A stretch of DNA of 64,000 bases, from the IMG/VR virus record IMGVR_UViG_3300033075_001920; one strand, written 5' to 3'. The notes below the pieces were generated by a model that had not been told where the DNA came from, did not search any database, and worked only from the letters and a program-made list of their open reading frames with translations. Shown here piece by piece: positions 43,327 to 63,160 of this stretch. Source of the DNA: a virus (taxonomy: Duplodnaviria > Heunggongvirae > Uroviricota > Caudoviricetes). Numbering within the stretch: position 1 is the first letter of the stretch; the number at the start of each line of letters is the position of its first letter. The position numbers and the translations under genes were made by a program.

Positions 43327-43401
43327 TGGTTGCGGGGGACGGACTCGAACCGCCGACCTGGGGGTTATGAGCCACCCGAGCTACCGCTGCTCCACCCCGC
43401 G
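43327..43401 (-). tRNA. trnfM: tRNA-fMet (CAT), initiator
   Basis: cloverleaf, C1:A72 mismatch, encoded CCA. Confidence 0.92.
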
Positions 43402-43564
43402 ATAAAATGGAATGTATGGTCAGTCAGCAAAAGCCCACGGACCAAAATGGGGCAAAGTTAAAATCAGCACGAAAACAACTTTCTCATCTTTTACATTCCA
43501 GTGGACAAATATAGAAGAAAAGAAATAATCCTAAAAATATTTTTTCAGATAATAAAAAATCCAT

Positions 43565-43730: not shown

Positions 43731-44007
43731 ATTCCGGAATATGAACAATAGTCCATCCGTCTGGTTCTGTAAACTTATGCTTCACACAATAAGTCATCGC
43801 TTTGCCATAGGTTTTTAAATTCATTGCCAACTGGGTATTAAGTGTAGTGGTATGGTCTTTCATAAGGTATTCTAAGGTAGTTTTATTCTGTATTAGATAA
43901 ATTCCTTCGGAAGTAAAGATTTTGTGCATCCTACGAATGGAAGATGCATCATCCCTTGAAAAAAATAGTTGTCTCATATAATAAATACGACGGAGCGTGA
44001 CATTCAA
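43729..44007 (-). CDS. hypothetical protein
   Basis: ORF between tRNAs. Confidence 0.55.
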   Translation of the reverse strand: MNVTLRRIYYMRQLFFSRDDASSIRRMHKIFTSEGIYLIQNKTTLEYLMKDHTTTLNTQLAMNLKTYGKAMTYCVKHKFTEPDGWTIVHIPE

Positions 44008-44141
44008 TTACATTAATCGAAATTAACAATTAACAAAACAAGGGTATAAGGCAAAGACTGCCAGTGCTGTATGTCTGCAAATACCATCTTCACATTTAAC
44101 AAATGATTTGCACAAAATTGTGCAAATTTTATAGAAACTTT

Positions 44142-44215
44142 GTCTCCCGAAGAGGAGTCGAACCTCTAATTGCAGGGTCGTAACCTACTGGTTTGTCCAT
44201 TAGCCTACCGAGAGA
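44142..44215 (-). tRNA. trnR: tRNA-Arg (ACG)
   Basis: cloverleaf, loop TTACGAC. Confidence 0.88.
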
Positions 44216-44220
44216 AATTT

Positions 44221-44293
44221 GGGTGTAACACCGGATTCGAACCGATACCAGCTGATTCACAGTCAGCCCGCCTGCCATTAGCGTAGAAACACC
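44221..44293 (-). tRNA. trnH: tRNA-His (GTG)
   Basis: loop CTGTGAA, G-1 present. Confidence 0.9.
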
Positions 44294-44302
44294 ATATATT
44301 TT

Positions 44303-44376
44303 GTACTCCCCAAAGGATTTGAACCTCTATTTCCAGAATCAAAGTCTAGCGTCCTGCCAGTTAGACGAGAGGAGTA
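44303..44376 (-). tRNA. trnQ: tRNA-Gln (TTG)
   Basis: loop CTTTGAT. Confidence 0.88.
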
Positions 44377-44424
44377 TGTAATTACTACTAATCTGTATTA
44401 AAATTAGTAGTAACTCACCATTTG

Positions 44425-44510
44425 AGCCACTTGTAGGATTTGAACCCACGATGAACTTTCGTTTTCTGCTTACAAGGCAGGTGCAATCGACCAGGCTATG
44501 CGAAAGTGGC
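44425..44510 (-). tRNA. trnT: tRNA-Thr (TGT) with long variable arm
   Basis: loop CTTGTAA; variable arm AAC-GAAA-GTT. Confidence 0.85.
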
Positions 44511-44524
44511 ATTTTAAAGAACTG

Positions 44525-44596
44525 TGGAAATGACTGGAATCGAACCAGTCCGCACGGATTTTCAGTCCGCTGCTCTACCAACTGAGCTACATCTCC
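44525..44596 (-). tRNA. trnF: tRNA-Phe (GAA)
   Basis: loop CTGAAAA. Confidence 0.92.
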
Positions 44597-44602
44597 ATTT
44601 TG

Positions 44603-44675
44603 AGCCTAGTACTGGATTTGAACCAGTGTACACATGATTTTGCAGACCATGACCTAACCACTCGGACAACTAGGC
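44603..44675 (-). tRNA. trnC: tRNA-Cys (GCA)
   Basis: loop CTGCAAA. Confidence 0.9.
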
Positions 44676-44682
44676 TTTTATT

Positions 44683-44762
44683 TGCGGTTCAGTCTCCCTC
44701 CTAATTAGAAGTTGTAGGCGTGCACTAACGCCTCGTTATTCGGACATTTCCTACGCTGAACC
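44683..44762 (-). ncRNA. tRNA-sized structured element of unclear type
   Basis: closing stem GGTTCAG/CTGAACC, inner AGGCGT/ACGCCT hairpin. Confidence 0.4.
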
Positions 44763-44837
44763 TAGAGGGGGTGGCTTGCCGTTAGCCGATTGCCGTTTTC
44801 ACAGTTTACAGGATTCGAACCCGCATTTCCCCCAACG
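44763..44837 (-). ncRNA. circularly permuted tRNA-like element Y (opened at anticodon loop)
   Basis: 3' half (GGGGG-AAAT-T arm-acceptor), GAAA, then 5' half (acceptor-TC-D arm-CCCCC). Confidence 0.7.
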
Positions 44838-44913
44838 TGGCATAAGCAGGATTCGAACCTGCGCATTCCTGCTCCCAAAGCAGGTCGGAAAAACCGGACT
44901 TCCGTATTACGCC
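44838..44913 (-). tRNA. trnP: tRNA-Pro (TGG)
   Basis: loop TTTGGGA. Confidence 0.88.
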
Positions 44914-44933
44914 ATTTTTTTATATGTAAGAAC

Positions 44934-45010
44934 TCATAAGAGCATCGTCCTTCCATTAAACGATCACCCATTAAACGGGTGAGCCGGGGTTGAACCGACA
45001 TAATGCCTCG
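44934..45010 (-). ncRNA. circularly permuted tRNA-like element X (opened at anticodon loop)
   Basis: GGCAT-TAT-T arm-TCACCC, loop, GGGTGA-TC-D arm-G-ATGCT. Confidence 0.7.
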
Positions 45011-45085
45011 TACTCGGTGCGGGGATCGAACCCGCTGCAACAGGATGAAAACCTGCCGTTTTAACCTACCGTGAACTAACCGAGC
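45011..45085 (-). tRNA. trnE: tRNA-Glu (TTC)
   Basis: loop TTTTCAT. Confidence 0.88.
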
Positions 45086-45087
45086 AT

Positions 45088-45116
45088 AAAAAAACCCTGA
45101 TTGTTAGTCAGGGTTT
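45088..45116 (-). terminator. attenuator terminator of leftward tRNA operon
   Basis: AAAACCCTGA-ctaacaa-TCAGGGTTTT plus T-run immediately before tRNA-Glu. Confidence 0.85.
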
Positions 45117-45143
45117 TAAAATATCGTAGTATTTTCAATTATC

Positions 45144-45224
45144 TCACGACACAATAAACCCTGATTCGCATGTAAAACATGGGAATTGCTCGGGGGTGTG
45201 TCGCTGAATAAGATTTAAAATCAC
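45144..45224 (-). CDS. leader peptide 1: MILNLIQRHTPEQFPCFTCESGFIVS (GTG start)
   Basis: codons 7-20 use only Q,R,H,T,P,E,F,C, the amino acids of the downstream tRNAs. Confidence 0.85.
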   Translation of the reverse strand: MILNLIQRHTPEQFPCFTCESGFIVS

Positions 45225-45333
45225 GTTGCAATTATAAAGAAAAAAATAGAATAAACAAATTAATATTTTTGGAATGGGAAAATATAAACCAATACCTTTA
45301 GAGAATATGAAATATTACAGTTTTTGCGAGACT

Positions 45334-45522
45334 GTTGTATATGCCTTTCAAATTGAGGTTATTCACAACATGAATCGCAGATAGAAGTTGTAAAAGCCAT
45401 TAGTGATAACTGGGCTGTGTTGTAAGGCATTATTTCCTGATTCATCGGCTTCGCAAGGAAGACTCCACAGGCGCATCGCGGGTACACTCCCGCTGAAATC
45501 AGAGAACTGATGTGCAAATATA
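45334..45522 (-). ncRNA. TnpB/Cas12f-like guide-RNA scaffold copy B with mini-array
   Basis: promoter TATATTTG; scaffold to 45387; spacer 45354-45386; repeat ATTTGAAAGGCATATACAAC 45334-45353. Confidence 0.8.
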
Positions 45523-45563
45523 GGAAAATTCTTGAATTCTGTTAGTAATTTAGAAAAAAATAT

Positions 45564-45571
45564 TATATTTG
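45564..45571 (+). promoter_or_regulatory. -7 promoter element of Leu/Ser/Tyr tRNA operon
   Basis: TATATTTG. Confidence 0.75.
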
Positions 45572-45579
45572 CACTCCCG

Positions 45580-45642
45580 ATGAGACAACAATTATCACTC
45601 AGTTATTCGTACCTATCAGCCTTTGCTGATCAGCTCGGATAA
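45580..45642 (+). CDS. leader peptide 2: MRQQLSLSYSYLSAFADQLG
   Basis: codons 5-13 use only L,S,Y, the amino acids of the downstream tRNAs. Confidence 0.88.
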   Translation: MRQQLSLSYSYLSAFADQLG

Positions 45643-45667
45643 CCTATGTGATTAAAATCTTGCATAG

Positions 45668-45695
45668 AAACCCCGGCTGAAAAGTCGGGGTTTTT
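45668..45695 (+). terminator. attenuator terminator of Leu/Ser/Tyr operon
   Basis: AAACCCCGGCT-GAAA-AGTCGGGGTTTTT. Confidence 0.85.
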
Positions 45696-45705
45696 GTGTT
45701 TATAT

Positions 45706-45779
45706 ACCCCTTTAGCCCAACGGAAGGAGGCGCGTGCCTTAGGAGCATGACAGTATCGGTTCGAATCCGATAGGGGGTA
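45706..45779 (+). tRNA. trnL: tRNA-Leu (TAG), short variable loop
   Basis: loop CTTAGGA, A73, 5-nt variable region. Confidence 0.8.
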
Positions 45780-45815
45780 CAAAAAAAAGTACACTGTACA
45801 AAAAGTGTACAAAAT

Positions 45816-45889
45816 GCACCCGTAGTCCAACGGCAGGAGACGAAGAGTTTAAGCCTCTGACAGTGTGGGTTCGAATCCCTCCGGGTGTA
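45816..45889 (+). tRNA. trnL: tRNA-Leu (TAA), short variable loop
   Basis: loop TTTAAGC, A73, 5-nt variable region. Confidence 0.78.
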
Positions 45890-45894
45890 CAAAT

Positions 45895-45985
45895 GGAAAG
45901 TGAAGCAGCTGCATTGGAGCGGCGATCAGTCTTGAAAACTGAGTCAGGTTTTGCCTGTGGGGATCGGGTCCTCCTCTTTCCGCCA
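45895..45985 (+). tRNA. trnS: tRNA-Ser (TGA), atypical T-loop
   Basis: loop CTTGAAA, long variable arm, G73, CCA. Confidence 0.82.
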
Positions 45986-45990
45986 GTTAT

Positions 45991-46079
45991 GGAAGATAGT
46001 CAGATATGGCTCGCTGAGTCTGTTTGCTAAACAGATCTGCTTTAAAGGAGCAGTGAGGGTTCGAATCCCTTGTCTTCCG
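45991..46079 (+). tRNA. trnS: tRNA-Ser (GCT)
   Basis: loop TTGCTAA, long variable arm. Confidence 0.88.
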
Positions 46080-46087
46080 CTAAATAT

Positions 46088-46173
46088 GGGTGTGCTGTCG
46101 CGATTGGTGGAGCGGCGCCGGTCTGTAAAATCGGTACTTTGATACGCTGTGGGTTCGAATCCTACCACACCCT
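46088..46173 (+). tRNA. trnY: tRNA-Tyr (GTA)
   Basis: loop CTGTAAA, long variable arm. Confidence 0.88.
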
Positions 46174-46214
46174 CTAAATAAACATAAATATACAAAAGTG
46201 TGTATATTTACATT

Positions 46215-46820
46215 TTAATGTATGTTTGGCAGTATATTCAACTCCGAGTATTCCTTTCCGAAATTTTCAATCGCAGCTTGATTATATGCCATTGCAGCAT
46301 CTTCCTCGTTTATAAAATAACCCAGATGCTTTTTAACGTAATCTAATTTTATATAAGCAGCCCATTTTTTTGCAAAATTACTCCAGCTAACTCCCTTGTA
46401 AACACTGGATGGCTCATCGCCGTTTGCTGTTTTGGGTTTCTTCTCCTTGTAATGTGCTTTACGATGATCAATGATTTCAATATTGTCTCGTCTTAAATTG
46501 AGCGGGTTTTTATCCTTATAATGGATAATAGATTTACCTTCAATATCCATCATTAATTTTGCTACCGGCGCAACAACCCTCTTACCTTGTTTTGAAATCC
46601 ACAATGCCATTACTATACCCCTCTTTTTATCAAAGAAGATTGCCTGCTGTCTTAAAATTTCATAATCTAAATCATCAAATTCAATGATTTTACCGCAGGT
46701 TGTTTTGACCCATCTGAATTGATTCGCAAATATCCGCATTGCTTTTATTGCATCATTTTTTGAGATATTTTCGGTTTTCTTTCCAAAAATGTCGTGCAAT
46801 ATTTCAATTTCGGTTTTCAT
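46215..46820 (-). CDS. HNH-AP2 homing-endonuclease-like protein
   Basis: IHYKDKNPLNLRRDNI (degenerate HNH) plus SSVYKGVSW...HLGYF..EEDAAMAYNQAA AP2 domain. Confidence 0.85.
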   Translation of the reverse strand: MKTEIEILHDIFGKKTENISKNDAIKAMRIFANQFRWVKTTCGKIIEFDDLDYEILRQQAIFFDKKRGIVMALWISKQGKRVVAPVAKLMMDIEGKSIIHYKDKNPLNLRRDNIEIIDHRKAHYKEKKPKTANGDEPSSVYKGVSWSNFAKKWAAYIKLDYVKKHLGYFINEEDAAMAYNQAAIENFGKEYSELNILPNIH

Positions 46821-47073
46821 CTGTTTTGCAAAGTAAATCTATTTAAAATAAATTGTTGTTATTGTTTAGTTTGAAAATGTCGAACTTTAAAATGTTTTCC
46901 GGAATAAGGGTTTATGAAAGAGCAAATACTATATGTTACTGAGGCGGGAGTTCTTATGTTAAATGTATGTGATATTGTTTACGGAATACAATATTTTGAG
47001 TATGAAACGCTGCAAAACCAAGTTTATTGGCTGCATTGTCCTGTTTGGTTTTATGATAGATATAATTAAATCT

Positions 47074-47265
47074 AAACCGAGAACTATAAAAATATTAGTA
47101 GTGTCTCAGTTTGAAATTTTAGACCGTTTGGTTTTTTATATCCTTACAAATTTACCGTACAAGAAAGAACTATGTATTTAATATTCATCTTTTTATAAGT
47201 GTATGGTTTTTTTGTATCCTTACAAATAACCATACACATAGGTCAAACCGAGAACTATAAAAATA
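47074..47265. repeat. AT-rich non-coding region with nested direct repeats
   Basis: AAACCGAGAACTATAAAAATA at 47074 and 47245; TATCCTTACAAAT at 47139 and 47215. Confidence 0.85.
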
Positions 47266-47294
47266 ATTTTAATTTATTTTCCCGGTTTTTTGTG

Positions 47295-47427
47295 TACATT
47301 TGCCTTGTTCTTTGAACCCAGCGGGAGTGTACCCGCGATGCGCCTGTGGAGTCTTCCTTGCGAAGCCGATGAATCAGGAAATAATGCCTTACAACACCGC
47401 CCAGTTATTACTAAAGGCTTTTACAAC
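47295..47427 (+). ncRNA. TnpB/Cas12f-like guide-RNA scaffold copy A
   Basis: promoter TACATTTG; 109 nt nearly identical to reverse complement of 45387-45495. Confidence 0.8.
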
Positions 47428-47530
47428 TAGTACGAAATTGTCGATTTCTTTAGTTTGAAAGGTATTTACAACTCGTATGAGTATCATAAATTTGAAAGGC
47501 AATACAACATTCCCTCCAGCTCACATCTTT
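47411..47530 (+). CRISPR. minimal CRISPR-like array with short repeats
   Basis: CTAAAGGCTTTTACAAC / GTTTGAAAGGTATTTACAAC (47453-72) / ATTTGAAAGGCAATACAAC (47490-508) separated by unique 25- and 17-nt spacers. Confidence 0.65.
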
Positions 47531-47558
47531 CCGTTATGCACCTAGTTGTAAAACTTAA

Positions 47559-50474
47559 GTGGATAATACGCATTTATCCATTTTAGCTTTGCCGAACCAT
47601 ATGAAAAATATATTTTTAATGCTGTTCTGCCTTTTGTCTCAGATCAGCTTCGGACAAACTCCGACCGACACCATCTATCTGAATGGGAAGACAAAAACGA
47701 CATTCAGCCTTGGCAAAACAATACCATTTTATTACATCGATTGCATTCAGTTCACAACAAGAACCACTTCCAGATCTATTTCGGGAGTTGGAACAGTAGT
47801 TTTTAAATCCGATGGCTCAGGCTACATTACGCCTTCATCAGCCGCTTATACTGCCAAATGGGATTACTATGTTTCAAATTGTGGATATGAAAAAAGGCAT
47901 CTTTTTTTTATGCAGAAGCCTACCATCCCGCCCCCGCCGGCCAATAAAGTACCTATACCAATATCAGATGCTTATACGATAGATCAAGATGCTACACTTT
48001 CTGAAAATATACTTATCAATGATTCAGATCCGGATTCAGATCCAATAACAGTTGCCTCATTTGCAATAAACGGAATTATTTATTCTCCCGGCACTCAGGT
48101 TATCCCATCGGTTGGAACTATAACCATTTTATCTTCCGGAGCACTATCTTTTTTAAATGCCGCAGGTATAACAGGAGATATTCCTATTATCAGTTATCTT
48201 ATCAAAGACAGTAAAGGAGCGCAAGCTGCATCATCTGTTTTAATTTCTGTAAAATCCAAACCGACCCTTCCGCCCAATACATTTGTTCTGGATAAAACAT
48301 CTACTACTTCAGCAGGAGTATACATCGGCAATAAACTAATCAGAACCCTTTGGAACAATGTTTCTAAACCGGCAGGCACTTATACCGTATCCTGGGATGG
48401 AAAAGACGATGCAGGGAACACAGCTCCTCCGGGAGGAAAAATAGCAGTTCTTTACCATCAGATGACCTACCAGTGGAAGGCAAGTATTGGAAATTCTTCC
48501 AGAGTGGATACAGGTTCTCATAAGCTCAGAGGGTTACGCACCCCGTTTGCTGGAGTTGAGGCTGGTGGCTACATTTATATATGTAAAGGTAACACAGAAG
48601 GTAACAGCCCGATATTCAAAATAGCCAAGTCGGATCCTCAATATATGTATTCTCTCCGTGAATCAGGTTGTGGGGATTGCGATATGCAAACTGAGTTTGT
48701 AGCCTCGGATGGTAATTTGGTTTATTGGGCAGGTTATGACGCTTGGACCGGTTACTGGCCTGTTACCAATAAAGTTCCACCGGATACCAATTCAAGAGTA
48801 AAGTCGATTATCTATGCGACCAAGGTAAGCGATGATCAGGATTATACATTTCCATCCGGAAAAAAGACAAAAGCTTCCCTTGCGGCATGTAATACATATT
48901 CCGGCATTGGTATAGTGCTGGACGATGACCTTGCCCGCCCTACGGGTCTTGCTGTCATGTCCACGGGGAATTATCTGTATTCTACCCATCTGGGCAAGTC
49001 GTGGGTTAGGTGCTATAATAAGACTACCGGTTCGCTGATAAGAACAATGGTCAATACTTTATCCAATATTGCAATCGATGGCAATTATCTGTATGGAATA
49101 AGCGGATCAACCATTAAAAAATATGCAATTAATTCAGATGGCACCCTGACAGATCAGAATGTAAATATTGCCATGCAAAGTCCTTTAAATATCTCTGTAA
49201 AAAATGGCACAATCATGGTCATAGAGGCAGCAACACAGCAGGTCTTAGCATACAATACCTCGGGTGTACTTCAATGGACTCTTGGTCAAAGCGGAGGATA
49301 TAAATCTAACCCTTATGTCAGCGCAGACAGGTTTAACTTCATAGAATTTAATAGAGATGAAAAAAAAGGATTTATTATACCTCAGGCAGATGGTTCGTTT
49401 TGGGTAGGAGATGCAGGCAATTGCAGAACTATCCATTTTGCAGCCGACAGAACGTATATTGAAAATGTAGCATATCTTCCTACCAATTATAATTGTGGAG
49501 TTGATCAGAATGCCCCTACAAGGGTATTTGCCGGATTTTTAGAATACGATGGACCTACCGGAACACTGGTAGCTAATTGGAGCGCAAACCTAACAGCCAA
49601 CTACAATTACATTGATAATCGTGCAATTTTTTCAAGCATACAAACCATATTAGGCAGAACCTATGGATTGATACTTTATTATCCAAATCCACCTTCTTCT
49701 GAAAATGTCGCTCAGGAATTAGTAGAACTTACATCCACGGGAATCAGGTTTACCGGCATTCGAAGGAATAATGACAATCGCTATGTATTTGACAAAAACG
49801 GCGATTTGCTGCATCCGGAAAGCGATTACTACGCATTATCGGGCACCGGAAAAATCATCCGGGAAAGATTTACAGGAATTAATACTTCAGGTAATCCTAC
49901 CTTTTCAGCTCCGGAAACCTTGTACACCTTTCCACTTGGTAAAAATTATCCTTCCTATGCTTCTTTGAACTATGGCACTAATGCCAAAGGAATTGTATTT
50001 TCGGATCATTATAATAATACCGGTTATCACTTAGGACGCATTGAAAACGGACAATGGATATGGATGACATGCAAATCTACTTCCAGAAACTATACTGGGG
50101 ATATGCCTACGGATGGCACCTTTGATTGCGGGAATGGAACACAGTATGCAGGATGGAATCTTTATAACATAGATTCATTTTTTGTCTGGTCTTTTCATGG
50201 AGAATTTTGGAAAAACTCTCAAACCAATATATGGAATCTGTTTCATGAGGATGGTTTAATGCTTATGCAGCTGGGTAAAACCGGTCCGCAGGCAGACATC
50301 TATAATGGAGGACATGATGCACCCAGGGAAGCTGCTGGAAACATGCTTGGAGGCCAGATTGTTAAAATCGGAAACGATTACTGGATCTTCTATTGCGATG
50401 AATCCAGACATGGTGCTATACATTACTTTAGGATATCCGGGGCAAACACGGTAAAAATAATTTATTTAAAATAA
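47559..50474 (+). CDS. secreted multidomain protein (signal peptide, Big/cadherin-like Ig, FlgD-Ig, beta-propeller); start likely 47601
   Basis: MKNIFLMLFCLLSQISFGQ; SDAYTIDQD..NILINDSDPD; LIRTL..YTVSWDGKDDAG. Confidence 0.82.
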   Translation: MDNTHLSILALPNHMKNIFLMLFCLLSQISFGQTPTDTIYLNGKTKTTFSLGKTIPFYYIDCIQFTTRTTSRSISGVGTVVFKSDGSGYITPSSAAYTAKWDYYVSNCGYEKRHLFFMQKPTIPPPPANKVPIPISDAYTIDQDATLSENILINDSDPDSDPITVASFAINGIIYSPGTQVIPSVGTITILSSGALSFLNAAGITGDIPIISYLIKDSKGAQAASSVLISVKSKPTLPPNTFVLDKTSTTSAGVYIGNKLIRTLWNNVSKPAGTYTVSWDGKDDAGNTAPPGGKIAVLYHQMTYQWKASIGNSSRVDTGSHKLRGLRTPFAGVEAGGYIYICKGNTEGNSPIFKIAKSDPQYMYSLRESGCGDCDMQTEFVASDGNLVYWAGYDAWTGYWPVTNKVPPDTNSRVKSIIYATKVSDDQDYTFPSGKKTKASLAACNTYSGIGIVLDDDLARPTGLAVMSTGNYLYSTHLGKSWVRCYNKTTGSLIRTMVNTLSNIAIDGNYLYGISGSTIKKYAINSDGTLTDQNVNIAMQSPLNISVKNGTIMVIEAATQQVLAYNTSGVLQWTLGQSGGYKSNPYVSADRFNFIEFNRDEKKGFIIPQADGSFWVGDAGNCRTIHFAADRTYIENVAYLPTNYNCGVDQNAPTRVFAGFLEYDGPTGTLVANWSANLTANYNYIDNRAIFSSIQTILGRTYGLILYYPNPPSSENVAQELVELTSTGIRFTGIRRNNDNRYVFDKNGDLLHPESDYYALSGTGKIIRERFTGINTSGNPTFSAPETLYTFPLGKNYPSYASLNYGTNAKGIVFSDHYNNTGYHLGRIENGQWIWMTCKSTSRNYTGDMPTDGTFDCGNGTQYAGWNLYNIDSFFVWSFHGEFWKNSQTNIWNLFHEDGLMLMQLGKTGPQADIYNGGHDAPREAAGNMLGGQIVKIGNDYWIFYCDESRHGAIHYFRISGANTVKIIYLK

Positions 50475-50514
50475 TTTTGTTATTTCAATAATAGTAATTA
50501 TAATTGCAGTGCAA

Positions 50515-50601
50515 ATGAGCAAAAACGTCAATATAGCCGGCATGAATAAAGATTGGAGAGGAATTCTTCACTCAGGGGCTCTATTGCGCACAATGATATA
50601 A
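50515..50601 (+). CDS. leader peptide 3: MSKNVNIAGMNKDWRGILHSGALLRTMI
   Basis: codons 3-17 use only K,N,V,I,A,G,M,D,W,R, the amino acids of the downstream tRNAs. Confidence 0.85.
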   Translation: MSKNVNIAGMNKDWRGILHSGALLRTMI

Positions 50602-50625
50602 AACCGTTCGGAAACGCGCCAAGAA

Positions 50626-50655
50626 AAGCCCCAGAGAAATCTGGGGTTTTTTTTT
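50626..50655 (+). terminator. attenuator terminator of third tRNA operon
   Basis: AAGCCCCAGA-GAAA-TCTGGGGTTTTTTTTT. Confidence 0.88.
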
Positions 50656-50692
50656 GCACTTATGTTCTTTGACATTTAAATAGTTTCATTAC

Positions 50693-50765
50693 GGGCCCGA
50701 AGCCAACGGCAGGCCGGCTGCTTTGCAAGCAGATCGTTTGGGTTCAACTCCCACGGTGTCCACCA
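50693..50765 (+). tRNA. trnA: tRNA-Ala (TGC)
   Basis: loop TTTGCAA, G3:U70, CCA. Confidence 0.85.
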
Positions 50766-50857
50766 GTTGGCTCATTTTTGAGCCAGTTAGTGTCTCAAAA
50801 ATCATTGATTATGAGACGCAATGTAGTTTTGTGGCTCATTTTTGAGCCACAAAACAG

Positions 50858-50968
50858 GTAGTGGGTCGATCACCGGATATATCCATTCTTATGGTAAATG
50901 CTAGGTTCGAATCCTGCCGGCGGGTTGCCCTCTAAAATTGGAAGGGGAACCCGCCGTAGACTCACTAC
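50858..50968 (+). ncRNA. circularly permuted tRNA-like element Z (opened at D-loop)
   Basis: 10-bp GTAGTGGGTC/GACTCACTAC stem; TTCGAAT T-loop; CGGCGGG..CCCGCCG-TA acceptor. Confidence 0.6.
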
Positions 50969-50976
50969 TTTTTTAC

Positions 50977-51052
50977 TCTCCTTTAGTTCAGTCCGGCTAG
51001 AACATCCCACTTTTAATGGGTAAGGTCACTGGTTCAAATCCAGTAGGGAGAA
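50977..51052 (+). tRNA. trnK: tRNA-Lys (TTT)
   Basis: loop CTTTTAA. Confidence 0.9.
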
Positions 51053-51058
51053 CAATAA

Positions 51059-51133
51059 GCAGATCTAGCTCAATTTGGACAGAGCAACGGCCTTCTAATC
51101 CGTAGGTTTGGGGTTCGAATCCCTGGTTCTGCA
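51059..51133 (+). tRNA. trnR: tRNA-Arg (TCT)
   Basis: loop CTTCTAA. Confidence 0.85.
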
Positions 51134-51144
51134 CAAGCAAATAT

Positions 51145-51215
51145 ACGTCTGTGGTGTAATGGTAGCATAAGTGATTCCAAACCATTTGATGGCAGTTCGA
51201 ATCTGTCCGGGCGTG
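51145..51215 (+). tRNA. trnW: tRNA-Trp (CCA)
   Basis: loop TTCCAAA. Confidence 0.85.
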
Positions 51216-51271
51216 CAAATTTAGTTCATTTATGAAAAAGACTAAATTTAGTGTTACAGCTAAATTTCTAT

Positions 51272-51346
51272 AGAAGTATGGCCAAGTTGGTAAAGGCATC
51301 TCACTGATAATGAGAAAATGCGGAGGTTCAAATCCTTCTACTTCTA
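51272..51346 (+). tRNA. trnI: tRNA-Ile (GAT)
   Basis: loop CTGATAA. Confidence 0.9.
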
Positions 51347-51355
51347 CAAATATAT

Positions 51356-51427
51356 TGCGGGGTGGAGTAGCGGTAGCTTGCTGGGCTCATAACCCAAAGG
51401 TCGCGGGTTCGAATCCCGCTCCCGCAA
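51356..51427 (+). tRNA. trnM: tRNA-Met (CAT), initiator-like body
   Basis: three G-C pairs in anticodon stem; U1:A72. Confidence 0.85.
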
Positions 51428-51431
51428 CATC

Positions 51432-51502
51432 AAGATTGGGTGGCGTGAATAACCAATAAGCGCGACATGTGCACCCAGCGCATGCTAATGACATCCAATC
51501 TT
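51432..51502 (+). ncRNA. unidentified structured RNA between tRNAs
   Basis: closing stem AAGATTGG/CCAATCTT. Confidence 0.35.
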
Positions 51503-51509
51503 TATTCAT

Positions 51510-51582
51510 GCACGATATAGCTCAATTGGCTAGAGTATCTGACTTCCAATCAGAGGGTGCGGTTCGAATCCGATATTGTGCT
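51510..51582 (+). tRNA. trnG: tRNA-Gly (TCC)
   Basis: loop CTTCCAA. Confidence 0.9.
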
Positions 51583-51629
51583 CGTAGAGGCGAGAAGCCG
51601 CAGTTAAAGTTCTGCTTAAAAACTTACAT

Positions 51630-51705
51630 TCTCTGGTAGCTCAGCCTGGTTTAGAGCAAATCCCTTACAAGGATAAGGTCGTTGGTTCGAATCCAACCCG
51701 GAGAA
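51630..51705 (+). tRNA. trnV: tRNA-Val (TAC)
   Basis: loop CTTACAA. Confidence 0.88.
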
Positions 51706-51715
51706 CAAGATTATT

Positions 51716-51791
51716 GGACCTTTAGCTCAGTCTGGTTAGTAGCAACTCACTCATAATGAGAAGGCCGGTGGTTCAAATCCATCAGGGTCCA
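51716..51791 (+). tRNA. tRNA (CAT): Ile2 (lysidine) or elongator Met
   Basis: loop CTCATAA; ATA codon in leader peptide 3 favours Ile2. Confidence 0.8.
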
Positions 51792-51859
51792 CAACATGCA
51801 TAAAAAATCACTGTTTTCTGTACATGTTTAAGTTATATGCACTGATTTTGTGCATTTAT

Positions 51860-51945
51860 TGTGCCTTGACCGAGTGGCCGATGGTAGCAGACTGTTAATC
51901 TGCCGGGAGTAATCCCCATCGTAGGTTCGAATCCTACAGGTACAG
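51860..51945 (+). tRNA. trnN: tRNA-Asn (GTT) with long variable arm
   Basis: loop CTGTTAA; variable arm GGGA-GTAA-TCCC. Confidence 0.85.
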
Positions 51946-51954
51946 CAAATAATA

Positions 51955-52032
51955 CGGTTCTATAGGGGAGTCCGGCCGTCCCCGTCTGCCTGTCACGCAG
52001 AAGACCACGGATTCGAATTCCGTTAGAACCGC
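51955..52032 (+). tRNA. trnD: tRNA-Asp (GTC)
   Basis: loop CTGTCAC. Confidence 0.85.
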
Positions 52033-52034
52033 AA

Positions 52035-52162
52035 AGGTCATTGTGTATAAAAAGACGAGTGCTGATCAGCAGATTTTTGGAGTCCAATCCCAAAAATTAC
52101 ATACGTGAGGTAGACAAGATTCCCGATGCAATATCCGTTAATGCTGATTTGCACAATGACCT
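52035..52162 (+). ncRNA. putative 128-nt structured RNA at end of tRNA operon
   Basis: 12-bp closing stem AGGTCATTGTGT/GCACAATGACCT. Confidence 0.5.
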
Positions 52163-52424
52163 GGCAAAAAAAAACCTTTTAAGCCAAATAAGGATAGGCT
52201 GAACTTCTATTATTTTCCAATTCTTCCTTAGACCTGACTTTAAAATTGAAAAGAGGCGCATTAGGTTTGATAAACAATATGAATGCCATATCACCGGCAA
52301 CTACATAAGCTGCAGTGGAATTATGTGTTACAATTTCTTTCATATTATTTTCAAAGGTCTTTAATTTTTAGCTTTTTTTCAAAAATAAAAAAGCGGAAGC
52401 ACTTTAAAATACTTCCGCCCCTTA

Positions 52425-52751
52425 GGTGGAGCTGGGGGGCTTCGAACCCCCGTCCGGTCGCAGGAACCCTTACATATTTATAGTAATAGAGAGATTAAGA
52501 CCTCACAAACCATGATGGGTATTTTGAATTTCTTTCAAAATTCTGTGCAAATAGTCGCTTGCATCAATTTTGCGGATTTGTGACACCGCGGTTTCACCTT
52601 AGGCGGCAAGCTTAACGCTGGCGGGCTGAGGACGGAAAGCAATCACTTTGCAGTTTTTGTCTTTTGTTTTATGAATGTTGTTTTAGCAGTGCAAACAAAC
52701 TGCTACTAAATGTAAGAACTCATATCTACCCCGTCAATTCCAGTCAACCCC
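52425..52751 (-). ncRNA. ssrA: tmRNA
   Basis: 5' GGGGTTGACTGGAATTGAC; 3' GGTTCGAAG..CAGCTCCACC with G3:U70; tag ...KNCKVIAFRPQPASVKLAA*; promoter TATCTTTG at 52756-63. Confidence 0.92.
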
Positions 52752-52852
52752 GCTTCAAAGATAAAATAGCACTTGCACTTATGCAAATCCAAAAGTTTGT
52801 TTCTTTGTTTTTTCAATTTATTTTTGTAAAGGATATAAAACCAACGTAATCC

Positions 52853-53377
52853 GTGCAAAAAACATTAAATCAGAGATATGGTCACCTTCTGGGCACATCT
52901 CCTCTGACAGATATACTTGATAATAAGGTAGTTGAAACATCTGCCATGTTTGAAGTAGGAGGATCTGTTCAGGGTAAAGGAGTCAATCCCTCGGATGGTA
53001 AAAGAGGAGGGTATTTTAAGGGTCGATCGCACAGGGAAGGTGGAATTAAGGCATACAATGTTACCACCGGTCAGCCAATCGAAGTGGAAGGCGATGAAGT
53101 AATCATTACCAAACCAGCAGTATTGGACGAAACAAAAAGAGAATTTGAGGGAGAGATGCTCACTAATAAAGAAATTCTTTCCCGGATAAACGAAGGTGGA
53201 GGCGGAGTAAAGTTCGAAGATGGCGGAGAAATTGAAAGATGCGCATGCGGCGGAAAAACTTACAAATATGGCGGAGAAGTTCTTGAAGACAGTATAATTA
53301 TTTCAAGACTTGAAAGAGATTACCAGGAACGGGAAATCAGCCGTGCCTACAAACAATTTTTAAGTAAAATACGATAA
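52853..53377 (+). CDS. hypothetical protein with GRSHREGGI/EVEGDE motif and FEDGG/YKYGG motifs
   Basis: ORF. Confidence 0.75.
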   Translation: MQKTLNQRYGHLLGTSPLTDILDNKVVETSAMFEVGGSVQGKGVNPSDGKRGGYFKGRSHREGGIKAYNVTTGQPIEVEGDEVIITKPAVLDETKREFEGEMLTNKEILSRINEGGGGVKFEDGGEIERCACGGKTYKYGGEVLEDSIIISRLERDYQEREISRAYKQFLSKIR

Positions 53378-54507
53378 TGGCAAAAGAAAAAGGCAAAATA
53401 AGCTTTAAGGCATGGGGAGTAGACTTTGTTGATATTCCATACATGAAAGGTGACTACTGGGAAAAACAACCGGAAAGAATATATCTTGGTGTAGCCGGCA
53501 CTGCCGCTATGGTTCGCCAGTTTCTAAAAGCTTTGTATCCAGGAGTAAAATTTTGGGTAAAGTCTGAGAGTTATTCAATGGGAAATTCTATCAATGCTTA
53601 TAGCTGGGGTTTTCCTGAGAATGAAGAAGCTGCCAGAGTAATAGATCGAGAACTCTCTGCTAAATTTCAAGAAGGCCATTTCAATAGCATGGAAGATATT
53701 TATGAGTATGGTAAAATGGAAGAGATTAAAACCGATGATGGTAGGACTATTGACTATGGCACTAAGTATATGCATTATTATACCAAACCGCCATACGGCT
53801 CTCCAGAATACAATTTACCACCACCGGATTATAGCAAGATAGGAAACACAAAAAAAGAAGTTCCCCGTGGAACAGGATCAGGCAAAAAATGGAAAAAGTT
53901 TGAGAAAAAGCCTGACGTAATCAAAGACAGTGGAGATTATAAACTCTTAGTCAAGCTCACAACAGGTTGGGAATTGTTTTACAAGGAAGAACCTTCCGGT
54001 GATGTTGAAATGGTTTTCAAATTCAATTATTCAGTTGGAAAGGCAGTTTACGACAAAGAGAAGTGGTCTAAATTAAAAAGCCTATTGGAATCAACAGGAT
54101 TAATCTGGTCGCTTCGCTTAAAAGGATTTTTCCTTTCGCAAGACAGAGGCGGTGTTCAGTCCTTGGTTGTAAATAAGCAGTATGCAATAGAACAATTGCT
54201 GGATGCGGCTTCCGGAATAGCATGGCCTTACGTGGACAATCTTTTTGCTGAAAATGGATATAAGAGAGTTTTAGATCAGGCTGTGGTCAACTATGATGTT
54301 ACTGACGGGAAACTTCAAATATTAAGTGAAGGTAAAATACAGCCCCAGCCAGATCCTGAACCCGTTCCGGCACCAACACCCAAACTTTCAGGAAAAGAAG
54401 AAATCGCTCAAATGATAAAATCGCTTTACACGCTCAATAAGCTATCGCCGAGCGATGAAATTACTAAAAAAATAAAAGCCCTCGAAACTTTACAAAAATA
54501 CTCATGA
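53377..54507 (+). CDS. LPD29 (large polyvalent protein-associated) domain protein
   Basis: VRQFLKALYPGVKFWVKSESYSMGNSI...FNSMEDIYEY. Confidence 0.75.
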   Translation: MAKEKGKISFKAWGVDFVDIPYMKGDYWEKQPERIYLGVAGTAAMVRQFLKALYPGVKFWVKSESYSMGNSINAYSWGFPENEEAARVIDRELSAKFQEGHFNSMEDIYEYGKMEEIKTDDGRTIDYGTKYMHYYTKPPYGSPEYNLPPPDYSKIGNTKKEVPRGTGSGKKWKKFEKKPDVIKDSGDYKLLVKLTTGWELFYKEEPSGDVEMVFKFNYSVGKAVYDKEKWSKLKSLLESTGLIWSLRLKGFFLSQDRGGVQSLVVNKQYAIEQLLDAASGIAWPYVDNLFAENGYKRVLDQAVVNYDVTDGKLQILSEGKIQPQPDPEPVPAPTPKLSGKEEIAQMIKSLYTLNKLSPSDEITKKIKALETLQKYS

Positions 54508-56063
54508 CAAGAAGAGAAGAAATATCCGCCGAACTTGCAGATCTTCAATTTCTATTGGACGATACAAGTGGAACCATCTCCCAGGAGGTGAAAAATATTG
54601 CTGCCGCAACAATGTCCGAGCTGCAAAAGGAATTGGATGACTTGATAGACAATCCAAGTCCTGAACCGGAACCTGTTCCCGAGCCTCCAAAAGGTCCTTC
54701 GGCGGCTAAAAAGAAAGGTAAAACGGTTGTAAAAACAGAACCGATACCCGAGCCTCCGGCGCCTGCTCCACCAATACCGGCTGAAGGTAAAACAGACCTG
54801 AGAGCAGCTGTTATAATAGCTATCAAAGAATTGATGGACTTAGGCAGAGGCAGTGGCGTAGATTCCGACCAGGTACAAGGCATTATCAAAGAGTATCTTG
54901 CCATTAAAAAGATTACTCTTGAAGAACTGGATAAATCAGTTCTGGAAGAAATTAAGCGCAACCAAACAGTTGTCTTAGAAATTCCAAGATTTGGCTTAAA
55001 AGTCTCTTTAAGCAAAGAAATTGCCGAAATTCCAAATATCTTCTCCATTATTGATGATGTACTGGCCGGCAATAACGTTATGCTGATTGGAGAAGCAGGT
55101 GGAGGTAAGACATTCACAGCTGAAAAGGTTGCACAAATCTTAAAAAGAAAGGTTGCAATTATCAACTGCAGCCAATATACATCGCCGGTTGAAATTCTTG
55201 GCGGTCAGACCATCGAAGGATATAAAGACGGAAAGCTTATTGTTGCATGGAGAGAAGGTTATATTCTCATTCTGGATGAGATGGCTAAACTCGATAGCAA
55301 TACAGCCGGTCTATTTAACGATGCTCTGGCTAAGAGCACAAAAACAACTCCTTCCGAAAATGCAATGATCAGCACTGCAAATCCGGAAGAACCGCCAATT
55401 CAGCGTAATAATAATTTTGGGGTTATTGCAACCGCAAACATCTACGCCAACAAGCCTCCGCAGGGTGGTTATGTAGGAAATAATCAGCAGGATTTATCCT
55501 TGCTTGACCGTTTTTCCGGATCTGTTTACTTCGTGGAATTTTCCAATTACATAGACCAAAGCAGTTGCAGATATAAATTTCTGTATGACTTTTTGGTAGG
55601 TAATTACCATGAGTATATTGCAGCAGTCCGAGATAACAAGACACCTGGGGATGCAAGAGGGCTTAGAACCATCATTGAAAAGAACAATTACAAGAATATG
55701 GCCCTGATGTCTTACAGGACGATCACCGCATTCAGGGTGGCATTCGAAATGCAGCTTGTCAGAGCTTTTCAGAAAAAAGCCGGTCAGCCGGTTCTTGAAA
55801 AAGGTGGTAAAACGGTCAGACAGACATATGAGAACTATCTGATAGCGTTTTCGGAAGATGCGCGTCAATCCATTATTCGAACAGTTGGCACTCCGGATGC
55901 GCTTGAAAGGATGGCTAGAAACACGATTGAATCCATTGTTGATGGAGATGAAAACACGTTTAGAAACTCACTTACAGATGCTATCAGGGATGTTGCTTCG
56001 GAATTGTATGAAGAATCAAAACAATGGCTGCTTGCTGAAAACTACGATGTAAAAGGTAGATAA
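54504..56063 (+). CDS. MoxR/CobS-like AAA+ ATPase with Pro-rich N-terminal linker
   Basis: GEAGGGKT, LILDEM, IATAN, LLDRF. Confidence 0.88.
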   Translation: MTRREEISAELADLQFLLDDTSGTISQEVKNIAAATMSELQKELDDLIDNPSPEPEPVPEPPKGPSAAKKKGKTVVKTEPIPEPPAPAPPIPAEGKTDLRAAVIIAIKELMDLGRGSGVDSDQVQGIIKEYLAIKKITLEELDKSVLEEIKRNQTVVLEIPRFGLKVSLSKEIAEIPNIFSIIDDVLAGNNVMLIGEAGGGKTFTAEKVAQILKRKVAIINCSQYTSPVEILGGQTIEGYKDGKLIVAWREGYILILDEMAKLDSNTAGLFNDALAKSTKTTPSENAMISTANPEEPPIQRNNNFGVIATANIYANKPPQGGYVGNNQQDLSLLDRFSGSVYFVEFSNYIDQSSCRYKFLYDFLVGNYHEYIAAVRDNKTPGDARGLRTIIEKNNYKNMALMSYRTITAFRVAFEMQLVRAFQKKAGQPVLEKGGKTVRQTYENYLIAFSEDARQSIIRTVGTPDALERMARNTIESIVDGDENTFRNSLTDAIRDVASELYEESKQWLLAENYDVKGR

Positions 56064-57379
56064 TGCCTGAAATAATCAAAGATACCGCTACTAGAACAAC
56101 AAACATCTATTTTAAAAATGGATTGTTTGAAAGTTTTGATTATGTTGCAAAAAGAAAAAGAGAAGCTCGCCATCCTAATATTGTATCACTATTTCAGAGA
56201 GAAGATAATGATTATACGCATCAAAATAATTTAAACAGATTTAAAAAGGAATGGTTTGGTACACTTGATTTAGAAGAGGTAAAACGACCTAAAACTTCAT
56301 TTTTATTTTCTGAAAAGATATATGGGATGATTGATAAATTTGAGAAGAAAACGGATAAAATTGATGTTTCGGCATTGAATCAGAAAAAAAAGATAGTGTT
56401 CAATGACCGTCAACTGGGTATTTTCTCTTTTGATTTGGCATCCTTGGGTCTTATTCCGGTTGTGGAATATTACAGCCCTTATTTGAAGTATATCGTAAGC
56501 CCTAATCTTGTAAGAAGCAGAAAAGTGGATGGAAAGCTTGAATTTTATCATATTGAGCAAATAAGAATACCGGAGCATAAGCTTCAAGAAAAGGGAGCAG
56601 ACCTATATAGTCCTATTTTAAAACGGAATGTCACAAGATCGGAAGCAAGGGTAATTACGGATGACGACGGAAATATTATTTTTATTTTTCCGGAAAGACC
56701 GGCTGTAGCTGAGCACACTGTTGAGCAGCGCCAAGTGAACCTTCCCAATGGAACAAGAAAATTCTCATCTACCTGGAAGAAGTCATTTATTTTCTTAGAA
56801 AAGAATCCTCATCAATTACCAACAATTGATATCATTATTAATAGTTCATTTTCTTGGAAAATAAAGGCAGACTCAGAAATGTTATTTAATTGTCTCCCTT
56901 TGGTAGTGATGATGAAAATGTTAGAAAAAAATAACGTCAAATTTCGTGTTTTTACTGTAAAAGCATTAATGTTTCAAAAGGATAATGGTACGCCAAATTC
57001 TGTTAATGCTTTTGTGAAATTAAAAGACACAAATGATCCTATAGATTATACAACATTAATGATTACCTCTTCTGATGCAAGATACTGCAGATTTGAAAGT
57101 TTGAAATTAAACATTGTTGCAGCTATGGATTCAGGCAGTGAAGATAAAATAACTAATGGATTGGGTTATCCAGTTAATGATTATAATTTATTGAAAAAAA
57201 ACTTCAATCAGGTTATAAGGGAAACTAAGGATTATGGAGAGGCTGACCCGAAATTTTATCAAGGCGATAATGAAAATAACAAGTTGATATTTACAACTTC
57301 CCTTTCAGAGCAGCAAGCTTTCGAGCGCTATGAGGAAAACGTAAATAAAATCAAGGACATGTTAAAAAGAGCAGGATGA
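56063..57379 (+). CDS. putative vWA/CobT-like partner of the AAA ATPase
   Basis: gene adjacency; C-terminal Rossmann-like IDIIINSS strand; fold inferred. Confidence 0.6.
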   Translation: MPEIIKDTATRTTNIYFKNGLFESFDYVAKRKREARHPNIVSLFQREDNDYTHQNNLNRFKKEWFGTLDLEEVKRPKTSFLFSEKIYGMIDKFEKKTDKIDVSALNQKKKIVFNDRQLGIFSFDLASLGLIPVVEYYSPYLKYIVSPNLVRSRKVDGKLEFYHIEQIRIPEHKLQEKGADLYSPILKRNVTRSEARVITDDDGNIIFIFPERPAVAEHTVEQRQVNLPNGTRKFSSTWKKSFIFLEKNPHQLPTIDIIINSSFSWKIKADSEMLFNCLPLVVMMKMLEKNNVKFRVFTVKALMFQKDNGTPNSVNAFVKLKDTNDPIDYTTLMITSSDARYCRFESLKLNIVAAMDSGSEDKITNGLGYPVNDYNLLKKNFNQVIRETKDYGEADPKFYQGDNENNKLIFTTSLSEQQAFERYEENVNKIKDMLKRAG

Positions 57380-57678
57380 CCGCAGAGCAGAAGATGCAAA
57401 TACAGATACTCCGTGAGCAATATACTCAGAATTGCAGCAAATATGCTACAAAAGGGAGCCATCATATCTGCAGTTTTACGGTACAGAAATCCTCAAATCC
57501 GGAAGATAAATCCGTTACAGTAGTTTGGAATCAGATTACCGGAATTGATGATAACCTGATACCCGAAAGCGAGCTGGTGTTTTACAACATTACCGAGGAT
57601 GGAAACTGTGTTAACCTGGCTTTAATTCTTGATTTTAAACAAATGGCGGATTACACCGGTAAATTGATAGACCTATGA
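57376..57678 (+). CDS. hypothetical protein
   Basis: ORF. Confidence 0.65.
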   Translation: MTAEQKMQIQILREQYTQNCSKYATKGSHHICSFTVQKSSNPEDKSVTVVWNQITGIDDNLIPESELVFYNITEDGNCVNLALILDFKQMADYTGKLIDL

Positions 57679-58034
57679 AAGAGATAAAAATGTTAAATTT
57701 CCTGAGGATCACTAAAAGTGAATACAAGTATATTCCGGATGACTGCATTCAGCTTGCCGAAATGGTAGACGATGTGAGTACAGAGCTTTTGGATGCATAT
57801 GAAAAGGAGCCTGAAAAATCATTAGCTGTCAGAATCCTCGGAAGCAAACTGTTCACTATTTTAACAGATTCTTTAAAGCAAATACCATCTTTCACCAATC
57901 GTGTAACGGACGTTGTGTCCGAGCTGGAAAATGCACCGGCTGAGCAAATAAAGGAAATCGTTGAAGAAACTATTGAAACTCAAAAAAAGAAAGACGAAGA
58001 TATTTTAGATATTATTGATAACTTAGAATTATAA
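57675..58034 (+). CDS. hypothetical acidic protein
   Basis: ORF. Confidence 0.65.
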   Translation: MKEIKMLNFLRITKSEYKYIPDDCIQLAEMVDDVSTELLDAYEKEPEKSLAVRILGSKLFTILTDSLKQIPSFTNRVTDVVSELENAPAEQIKEIVEETIETQKKKDEDILDIIDNLEL

Positions 58035-58038
58035 CATT

Positions 58039-63152: not shown

Positions 63153-63160
63153 TAAATAAA

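Follow-up and report, generated by a model that had tools for sequence, protein, structure and literature searches.

A putative leader-peptide attenuator with a multi-amino-acid census ahead of an eight-tRNA operon in an uncultured phage

We analyzed a 64,000-nucleotide stretch of DNA (hereafter the window) from IMG/VR virus record IMGVR_UViG_3300033075_001920, which is part of a 132-kilobase (kb) contig of an uncultured phage of the Caudoviricetes. The window contains three units (A, B, and C), each composed of a leader open reading frame (ORF), a terminator, and a transfer RNA (tRNA) operon. The element under study, unit A, is located on the minus strand ahead of operon A, which carries genes for tRNAs specific for Glu, Pro, Cys, Phe, Thr, Gln, His, and Arg(ACG) (45085–44142, minus strand; called by ARAGORN and Rfam). 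Fourteen consecutive codons of its leader specify these eight amino acids and no others, and the next three codons duplicate the 3′ arm of the terminator. These features, together with folding models, indicate that unit A is probably a ribosome-mediated (leader-peptide) transcription attenuator that gates the eight-tRNA operon. We read it as leader-peptide attenuation applied to tRNA genes through a leader that takes a census of several amino acids, and as new in this form.

Anatomy and alternative folds of unit A

The features of unit A are as follows.

45229–45259, minus strand: promoter-like element, TTTG-N19-TATAATTG, of the Bacteroidota −33/−7 type (pattern match)
45144–45224, minus strand: leader A ORF, 26 codons plus TGA, GTG start, translated as VILNLIQRHTPEQFPCFTCESGFIVS followed by the stop
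45165–45206, minus strand: cognate run, codons 7–20, Q R H T P E Q F P C F T C E
45197–45204, minus strand: segment 1 (protector), which pairs with 45153–45146 in the minimum free energy (MFE) fold
45156–45164, minus strand: segment 2 (antiterminator 5′ strand), TCAGGGTTT, codons 21–23, exact copy of the terminator 3′ arm
45121–45152, minus strand: hairpin nested in the antiterminator that stabilizes the pairing of segments 2 and 3 (folding)
45108–45117, minus strand: segment 3, terminator 5′ arm AAAACCCTGA, partner of segment 2 or segment 4
45088–45100, minus strand: segment 4, terminator 3′ arm TCAGGGTTT, continuing as a T7 tract

The leader opens with GTG ATT TTA AAT CTT ATT, continues through the 14 codons of the run, and ends with TCA GGG TTT ATT GTG TCG TGA. 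An earlier sequence-only reading of this DNA had proposed a GTG-started leader at 45224–45144 and had quoted codons 7–20 (45206–45165), noting that most amino acids are represented by two synonymous codons. The leader is exact in both sequence and translation, the codons are as quoted, and all coordinates given for them are right. Six amino acids appear twice in the run, each indeed encoded by two different codons, an arrangement whose chance we estimate to be ∼0.035. The same reading held that nine nucleotides (nt) at 45164–45156 copy the terminator 3′ arm and are perfectly complementary to its 5′ arm, and a check of the letters bears this out. The sequence TCAGGGTTT is present at 45164–45156 and again at 45100–45092, and its complement AAACCCTGA is at 45116–45108. 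This 9-mer occurs five times in the window versus 0.61 expected, and three of these occurrences are inside the unit A element. The complementarity of leader A to the terminator 5′ arm exceeds that of 1000 out of 1000 shuffled sequences (p < 0.001).

The intrinsic terminator (45117–45088) has a 10-base-pair (bp) stem, a 7-nt loop, and the T7 tract. It lies 26 nt after the leader TGA with the layout AAAACCCTGA, loop, TCAGGGTTTT, followed by further T residues, and tRNA-Glu begins 3 nt past the T tract. At the other end, the promoter box stops 4 nt upstream of the GTG, which suggests that the leader messenger RNA (mRNA) is probably essentially leaderless. The promoter pattern matches 14 times in the whole window (6.2 expected), and the element of unit A is 71% alike to the one before leader C. 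In a pattern search of the minus strand between 45300 and 44050, a single TAnn(A/T)TTG box was found, which is located ahead of leader A. Because no other box is present on this strand in the interval, the eight tRNAs are predicted to depend on read-through of the terminator.

The correspondence between the run and the operon is not due to chance, as indicated by the uniqueness of the run in all six frames of the window and by shuffling. The amino acids E, P, C, F, T, Q, H, and R together have a six-frame frequency of 0.34, and run A (14 codons, all eight amino acids covered) is the only run of at least 12 for this set in the 64 kb. When the 250 nt upstream of the operon were shuffled 20,000 times, no shuffle reached 14 and the maximum was 12. 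Equivalent shuffles for units B and C reached the observed run 8 and 12 times out of 20,000, respectively. The longest run of L, S, and Y in the 64 kb is LSLSYSYLS, immediately upstream of operon B. Likewise, the longest run of A, K, R, W, I, M, G, V, N, and D is KNVNIAGMNKDWRGI, which covers 10 of these 10 amino acids and is immediately upstream of operon C. When every leader was compared with every operon set, each scored solely with its own operon, and the three runs jointly cover all 20 amino acids. Even the Arg codon tracks the anticodon: leader A uses CGA, as its sole Arg codon, with tRNA-Arg(ACG), and leader C uses AGA with tRNA-Arg(UCU). A tRNA-Arg(ACG) reads CGA by wobble, as ICG.

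The untranslated leader is predicted to fold with an MFE of −38.7 kcal/mol (z score −4.6), with segments 1 and 2 paired and the terminator (segments 3 and 4) formed. In this fold, the protector pairs 45204–45197 with 45153–45146 and also CCC at 45194–45192 with GGG at 45161–45159, thereby locking away part of segment 2. When pairing of segments 2 and 3 is forced, the leader folds at −28.4 kcal/mol versus −38.7 kcal/mol. Considered locally, the antiterminator plus its nested hairpin (−19.6 kcal/mol) is more stable than the terminator alone (−12.2 kcal/mol).

We modeled the effect of a ribosome by masking all nucleotides up to 12 nt beyond the A-site codon and folding the remainder at equilibrium. 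The probability of the terminator core is 0.91 with no ribosome, with the A site at codons 1–3, and with the A site anywhere from codon 18 through the stop. It falls to 0.05–0.25 only when the A site is at codons 8–17. All eight amino acids are represented among these ten codons (R H T P E Q F P C F). The earlier proposal that a ribosome stalled in the run leaves segment 2 free thus agrees with the mask model for A sites at codons 8–17 and fails for codons 18–20, where the ribosome covers segment 2. Its companion proposal, that a ribosome reaching the stop covers this segment, is reproduced, since a ribosome at the TGA masks 45161–45134 and overlaps segment 2. All the features of a leader-peptide attenuator that can be examined in silico are present in unit A and are mutually consistent, in keeping with the attenuator function that had been suggested for it.

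Given these characteristics, we propose the following mechanism. Transcription would start a few bases ahead of the GTG, and the leader would be translated as a leaderless or nearly leaderless mRNA. If all eight aminoacyl-tRNAs are plentiful, the ribosome should pass through the 14-codon census, reach the TGA, and cover segment 2; alternatively, segment 1 may recapture segment 2 after the ribosome is released. With segment 2 blocked, the terminator would form and polymerase would stop near 45088, 3 nt short of tRNA-Glu. Scarcity of any one of these aminoacyl-tRNAs would instead stall the ribosome at codons 8–17, leaving segment 1 covered and segment 2 free. The free segment 2 could then pair with the terminator 5′ arm before the 3′ arm exists, which would permit read-through and the production of all eight tRNAs (OR logic). 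The new tRNAs would restore decoding speed and the operon would shut, creating a demand-driven negative feedback. Likely triggers would be depletion or cleavage of host tRNAs, or the codon demand of the phage itself.

Related units in the window and in other phages

Units B and C have the same layout as unit A, each with its own amino-acid set. Operon B encodes Leu, Leu, Ser, Ser, and Tyr tRNAs (45706–46174, plus strand), and operon C encodes Ala, Lys, Arg(UCU), Trp, Ile, Met, Gly, Val, Met, Asn, and Asp tRNAs (50693–52032, plus strand). Their leaders and terminators are as follows.

45580–45705, plus strand: unit B, ATG at 45580, leader MRQQLSLSYSYLSAFADQLG and terminator, before Leu, Leu, Ser, Ser, Tyr
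50515–50660, plus strand: unit C, leader MSKNVNIAGMNKDWRGILHSGALLRTMI and terminator, before the eleven tRNAs of operon C

A second phage with this arrangement was reached through a 70%-identity homologue of the HNH endonuclease encoded in the window (46215–46820). Its IMG/VR contig, 3300043411_001575 (169.7 kb), carries 24 tRNAs and three units with leader and terminator, among which the tRNAs are partitioned unlike those of the window.

Leader MKRRNIIVENMWSENTGDKACTQGASVYCLITTMGV, in which 30 of 35 residues belong to the set and 13 of 13 amino acids are represented: before Thr, Met, Ile, Met, Asn, Asp, Trp, Glu, Gly, Cys, Met, Ala, Val, Lys, Arg, Arg
Leader with run SLHSYLSLY: before His, Ser, Tyr, Leu, Leu
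Leader with run QQFFPQQPQF (third unit, L3): before Pro, an inserted HNH gene, Phe, Gln

The tRNAs for His, Glu, Cys, and Thr are placed in other operons in the second phage than in the window, and each such change is mirrored in the core run of the corresponding leader. The peptide sequence of the leaders is not conserved between the phages, whereas their composition tracks the tRNA set. Unit L3 most closely matches unit A: its terminator is nearly identical, the segment 2 region is conserved, and in an ungapped comparison by eye the distance from its ATG to the promoter box equals that from the GTG to the box in the window. The two phages are nevertheless distant, since tRNAs with the same anticodon are only ∼62% identical and no homologue of the AAA ATPase of the window is detectable in contig 3300043411_001575. 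Homology between the two attenuators can be regarded as secure only over the terminator and segment 2. It is possible that the tRNA island is mobile as a module, or that the two designs arose in part independently. We also observed that the large tRNA operon of the second phage (minus strand, within the region 43800–63700) is interrupted by other ORFs and by HNH endonuclease genes, of which there are at least three, and has a single leader and terminator at its head. Such tRNA islands look like hot spots for homing endonucleases; the surroundings of segB in phage T4 are a comparable case.

Among the six units of the two phages, the best complement to a terminator arm is always located at codons 17–27, after the run and before the stop. 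The p values for this complementarity are <0.001, 0.013, 0.022, 0.044, 0.15, and 0.29. In folding of transcripts that stop short of the 3′ arm, the segment after the run pairs with the 5′ arm in units A, B, and C. Unit A is the cleanest example among the units examined.

The terminator hairpin of unit A also ends ordinary protein genes in two viral contigs, L051 and L053. The hairpin AAACCCTGACTAAnnATCAGGGTTTTT recurs almost letter for letter at L051:946–970 and L053:604–628 in contigs that are otherwise different, and it appears to be a shared terminator module. Its use at the ends of protein genes supports the conclusion that it is a real, working type of terminator. Beyond the second phage, a search of viral contigs with the terminator pattern returned only gene-end terminators of this kind.

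A leader of similar character precedes a tRNA block in the cultured, unrelated Caulobacter phage Karma. In the one block checked, an ORF with RQFVRQIQVVR and a depositor-annotated terminator are located before tRNAs for Phe, Val, Ile, Ile, Val, Gln, Gln, and Arg. Layout and logic agree with those of unit A, whereas the sequences are unrelated. Other searches yielded no further examples. A tRNA-Cys anticodon-arm pattern matched an unrelated group of phages (L013–L016), whose tRNA blocks are without cognate leaders and served as a negative control. Among 28 IMG/VR contigs identified as backbone relatives by using the AAA ATPase (single sequence and profile), almost none have tRNA arrays and none have a comparable leader, which indicates that the island is not a lineage-wide trait. 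Relatives found with a 971-residue immunoglobulin-like protein (viral and protein searches) have homologous loci without tRNAs. Degenerate back-translation of run A gave no match to viral contigs, and an HNH profile run against metagenomes gave nothing useful.

Weight of the evidence and rival explanations

Several points weigh against an attenuator at unit A. We infer the transcription start, translation of the ORF, and the 3′ end near 45088, as well as stalling, termination, and the trigger. The efficiency in the host of a GTG start on a probably leaderless mRNA is uncertain. The codons ACC and CCC in run A require U34:C reading by the UGU and UGG tRNAs. Moreover, ribosomes would stall under amino acid starvation too, and the tRNA genes would then be turned on without benefit. 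The device is not universal, as phage L015 (15 tRNAs) has no cognate leaders; this same absence demonstrates that the run statistic does not fire by default. Finally, units B, C, and L3 keep the terminator at every ribosome position in the equilibrium mask model. Only unit A of the six units switches, the terminators elsewhere being much stronger than the candidate antiterminators, and the complementarity is weak in two units (p values of 0.15 and 0.29). Because the equilibrium model leaves the other terminators closed, it implies that attenuators of this class must act kinetically (co-transcriptionally), like classical attenuators, or partly by another route.

Such a route is offered by an explanation in which the ORF senses decoding, and the ribosome shields the transcript from Rho or RNases or sets its processing, whereas the hairpin is mainly a constitutive partial terminator or a processing signal. 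The five terminators that never open, the poor complementarity in two of those units, and a codon census that is equally strong in the non-opening units are all in its favor. We consider it unlikely given that the antiterminator of unit A is a perfect 9-bp copy that is more stable than the terminator, that stalls exactly inside the run open this terminator, and that all six units place the best arm complement just after the run. Less probable still is that the hairpin terminates an upstream transcript, for example from a small-RNA-like locus at 45386–45507 (minus strand), with the tRNAs made by constitutive leaky read-through and the ORF being a chance frame. A TATATTTG box is present ∼300 nt upstream on the same strand, and the gene-end terminators described above are of the identical hairpin type. 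However, the counts and shuffles above exclude chance as the source of the run, a promoter box lies 4 nt ahead of the ORF, and the pattern recurs in three units of the window and in three of the second phage, where it follows a different partition of the tRNAs. We give almost no credence to a functional micropeptide whose composition is unrelated to tRNA control. Nothing specific speaks for it other than that short ORFs can encode peptides. Against it, the peptide sequence changes between the phages with a composition that tracks the tRNA set, and the pairs of synonymous codons suggest that the codons, not the peptide, are under selection.

If attenuation at unit A is taken together with the other units, then phage tRNA islands might form a modular homeostat of decoding capacity. 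On balance we lean toward this broader view, in which a few census attenuators jointly sample the 20 amino acids, each switching on its block when the corresponding host tRNA pool fails, and leaders are rewritten as tRNAs move between blocks. In the window, three units would cover 25 tRNAs in this manner. The arrangement would be recurrent in unrelated phage lineages (the Bacteroidota-type phage studied here, the second 169-kb phage, and Caulobacter phages). If true, phage tRNAs would be supplied on demand to replace a host pool that is failing, and would not be constitutive helpers of codon usage.

Known systems and the surrounding tRNA island

Rfam holds no family for the unit A element. A T-box riboswitch was considered and rejected: the model, with its stem I specifier loop and conserved T-box, was unmatched in the Rfam search, either at the gathering threshold or at E ≤ 1. 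The classical attenuator families of amino acid operons (trp, his, thr, ilv, leu, and pheA) were likewise set aside, since the targets here are eight tRNA genes; unit A would work alike and is not a member. A full-text literature search for control of tRNA operons or phage tRNA genes by leader peptides or attenuation found no published account, and it returned only classical attenuators of amino acid, antibiotic-resistance, and synthetase genes.

Enterobacterial attenuators can be multivalent, such as thr (Thr/Ile) and ilvGMEDA (Ile/Leu/Val), or can respond to a single amino acid, such as trp, his, pheA, and leu. They share with the device proposed for unit A a short translated leader with regulatory codons, the 1:2, 2:3, and 3:4 pairing alternatives, an intrinsic terminator that precedes the regulated genes, and a decision on termination that depends on ribosome position. 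In contrast, they regulate biosynthetic enzymes rather than tRNAs, and their leaders contain a homopolymeric run, whereas that of unit A samples eight amino acids through one or two codons apiece. Unlike these systems, unit A also appears to have an essentially leaderless, GTG-started mRNA, and its output would directly replenish the sensed molecule.

The pheST attenuator of Escherichia coli (pheM leader) controls phenylalanyl-tRNA synthetase in response to charged tRNA-Phe. Its target is likewise in the translation apparatus and its signal is aminoacyl-tRNA supply, but it responds to a single amino acid and acts on a synthetase, whereas unit A would control tRNA genes. T-box riboswitches bind uncharged tRNA directly through one specifier codon, without translation, and control synthetase and amino acid genes. 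As proposed for unit A, tRNA status sets the choice between terminator and antiterminator and hence read-through. Leaderless polycysteine upstream ORFs that act as attenuators have been described in mycobacteria (bioRxiv 10.1101/834739). As described there, they resemble unit A as short leaderless ORFs at the 5′ end of a transcript that sense specific codons and control a downstream operon. They differ in responding to a single amino acid (Cys), in controlling cysteine-related protein genes, and in belonging to a different phylum.

Why phages carry tRNA genes is a long-standing question for which two main answers have been given: a match to codon usage, and replacement of host tRNAs that are degraded or are cleaved by defense nucleases. 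An attenuator that reads the codons served by the downstream tRNAs implies that the phage gauges the speed of decoding and provides tRNAs when they are needed. It would extend leader-peptide attenuation, known for amino acid and synthetase genes, to RNA genes, and would place an eight-input OR gate in 14 codons. Such units would be compact, portable sensors of individual aminoacyl-tRNA pools and could help to annotate phage tRNA islands.

The island of the window spans 43.3–52.8 kb and contains a transfer-messenger RNA (tmRNA) and 23 tRNAs called by ARAGORN and Rfam. Two weaker calls, tRNA-Ser(UGA) at 45895–45981 and tRNA-Ala(UGC) at 50693–50765, bring the total to 25 tRNAs, which comprise 22 distinct elongator anticodons, mostly with U34, and three CAU species. 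A set of this kind approximates the minimal set that reads every codon. The island is organized as the three operons and a separate initiator tRNA. The genes of operon A (ARAGORN and Rfam) and the hairpin that closes it are as follows.

45010–45085, minus strand: tRNA-Glu (UUC)
44837–44913, minus strand: tRNA-Pro (UGG)
44602–44675, minus strand: tRNA-Cys (GCA)
44524–44596, minus strand: tRNA-Phe (GAA)
44424–44510, minus strand: tRNA-Thr (UGU)
44303–44375, minus strand: tRNA-Gln (UUG)
44221–44292, minus strand: tRNA-His (GUG)
44142–44214, minus strand: tRNA-Arg (ACG)
44106–44127, minus strand: terminator-like hairpin closing operon A

No extra tRNAs were called in the long spacers of operon A, even with relaxed thresholds. 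Two of these spacers (44676–44836 and 44914–45009, minus strand) contain T-arm-like pieces and a cloverleaf-like fold, GGUUCAG...CUGAACC, that ARAGORN and Rfam do not call. These pieces may be decayed or noncanonical tRNAs.

In operon C, the spacer between tRNA-Ala and tRNA-Lys (50766–50976, plus strand) folds at −97.6 kcal/mol (z score −9.6), with a long stem and U6 directly before tRNA-Lys that may be a second gate within the operon. The run of leader C at 50532–50557 is complementary at 23 of 26 positions to 51494–51519, which comprises an operon C spacer and the start of tRNA-Gly. Ungapped, the complementarity is 19 of 22 versus a shuffle maximum of 16. This complementarity may reflect antisense pairing, either long-range or in trans, or may be left over from an inverted duplication. 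Leaders A and B have no counterpart, and antisense pairing of leader A with its own operon gave nothing above shuffles.

The initiator tRNA locus (CGCGGGG...CAACCA; 43327–43530, minus strand) carries a separate TATATTTG box, with an ATG TAA start-stop pair 9 nt after it, and a weak terminator-like hairpin is present at 43451–43434. As a speculation, the pair and the hairpin may be a minimal sensor for initiator tRNA.

A 122-nt inverted duplication (45386–45507 and 47307–47428; 94% alike) flanks leader B, operon B, and the HNH gene at 46215–46820. Each copy is preceded by a TAnnTTTG box and resembles a small-RNA gene. The phage tmRNA (52425–52787, minus strand; Rfam score of 61 bits) is preceded by a TTTG-N-TATCTTTG box that ends 5 nt before its 5′ end, and the tag peptide assigned to it by ARAGORN is atypical. 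Elsewhere in the window, a nicotinamide phosphoribosyltransferase gene is present at 25122–26549 (plus strand; PHROG 448, E value of 2e-107). This enzyme of NAD salvage is often linked to the countering of NAD-depleting defenses.
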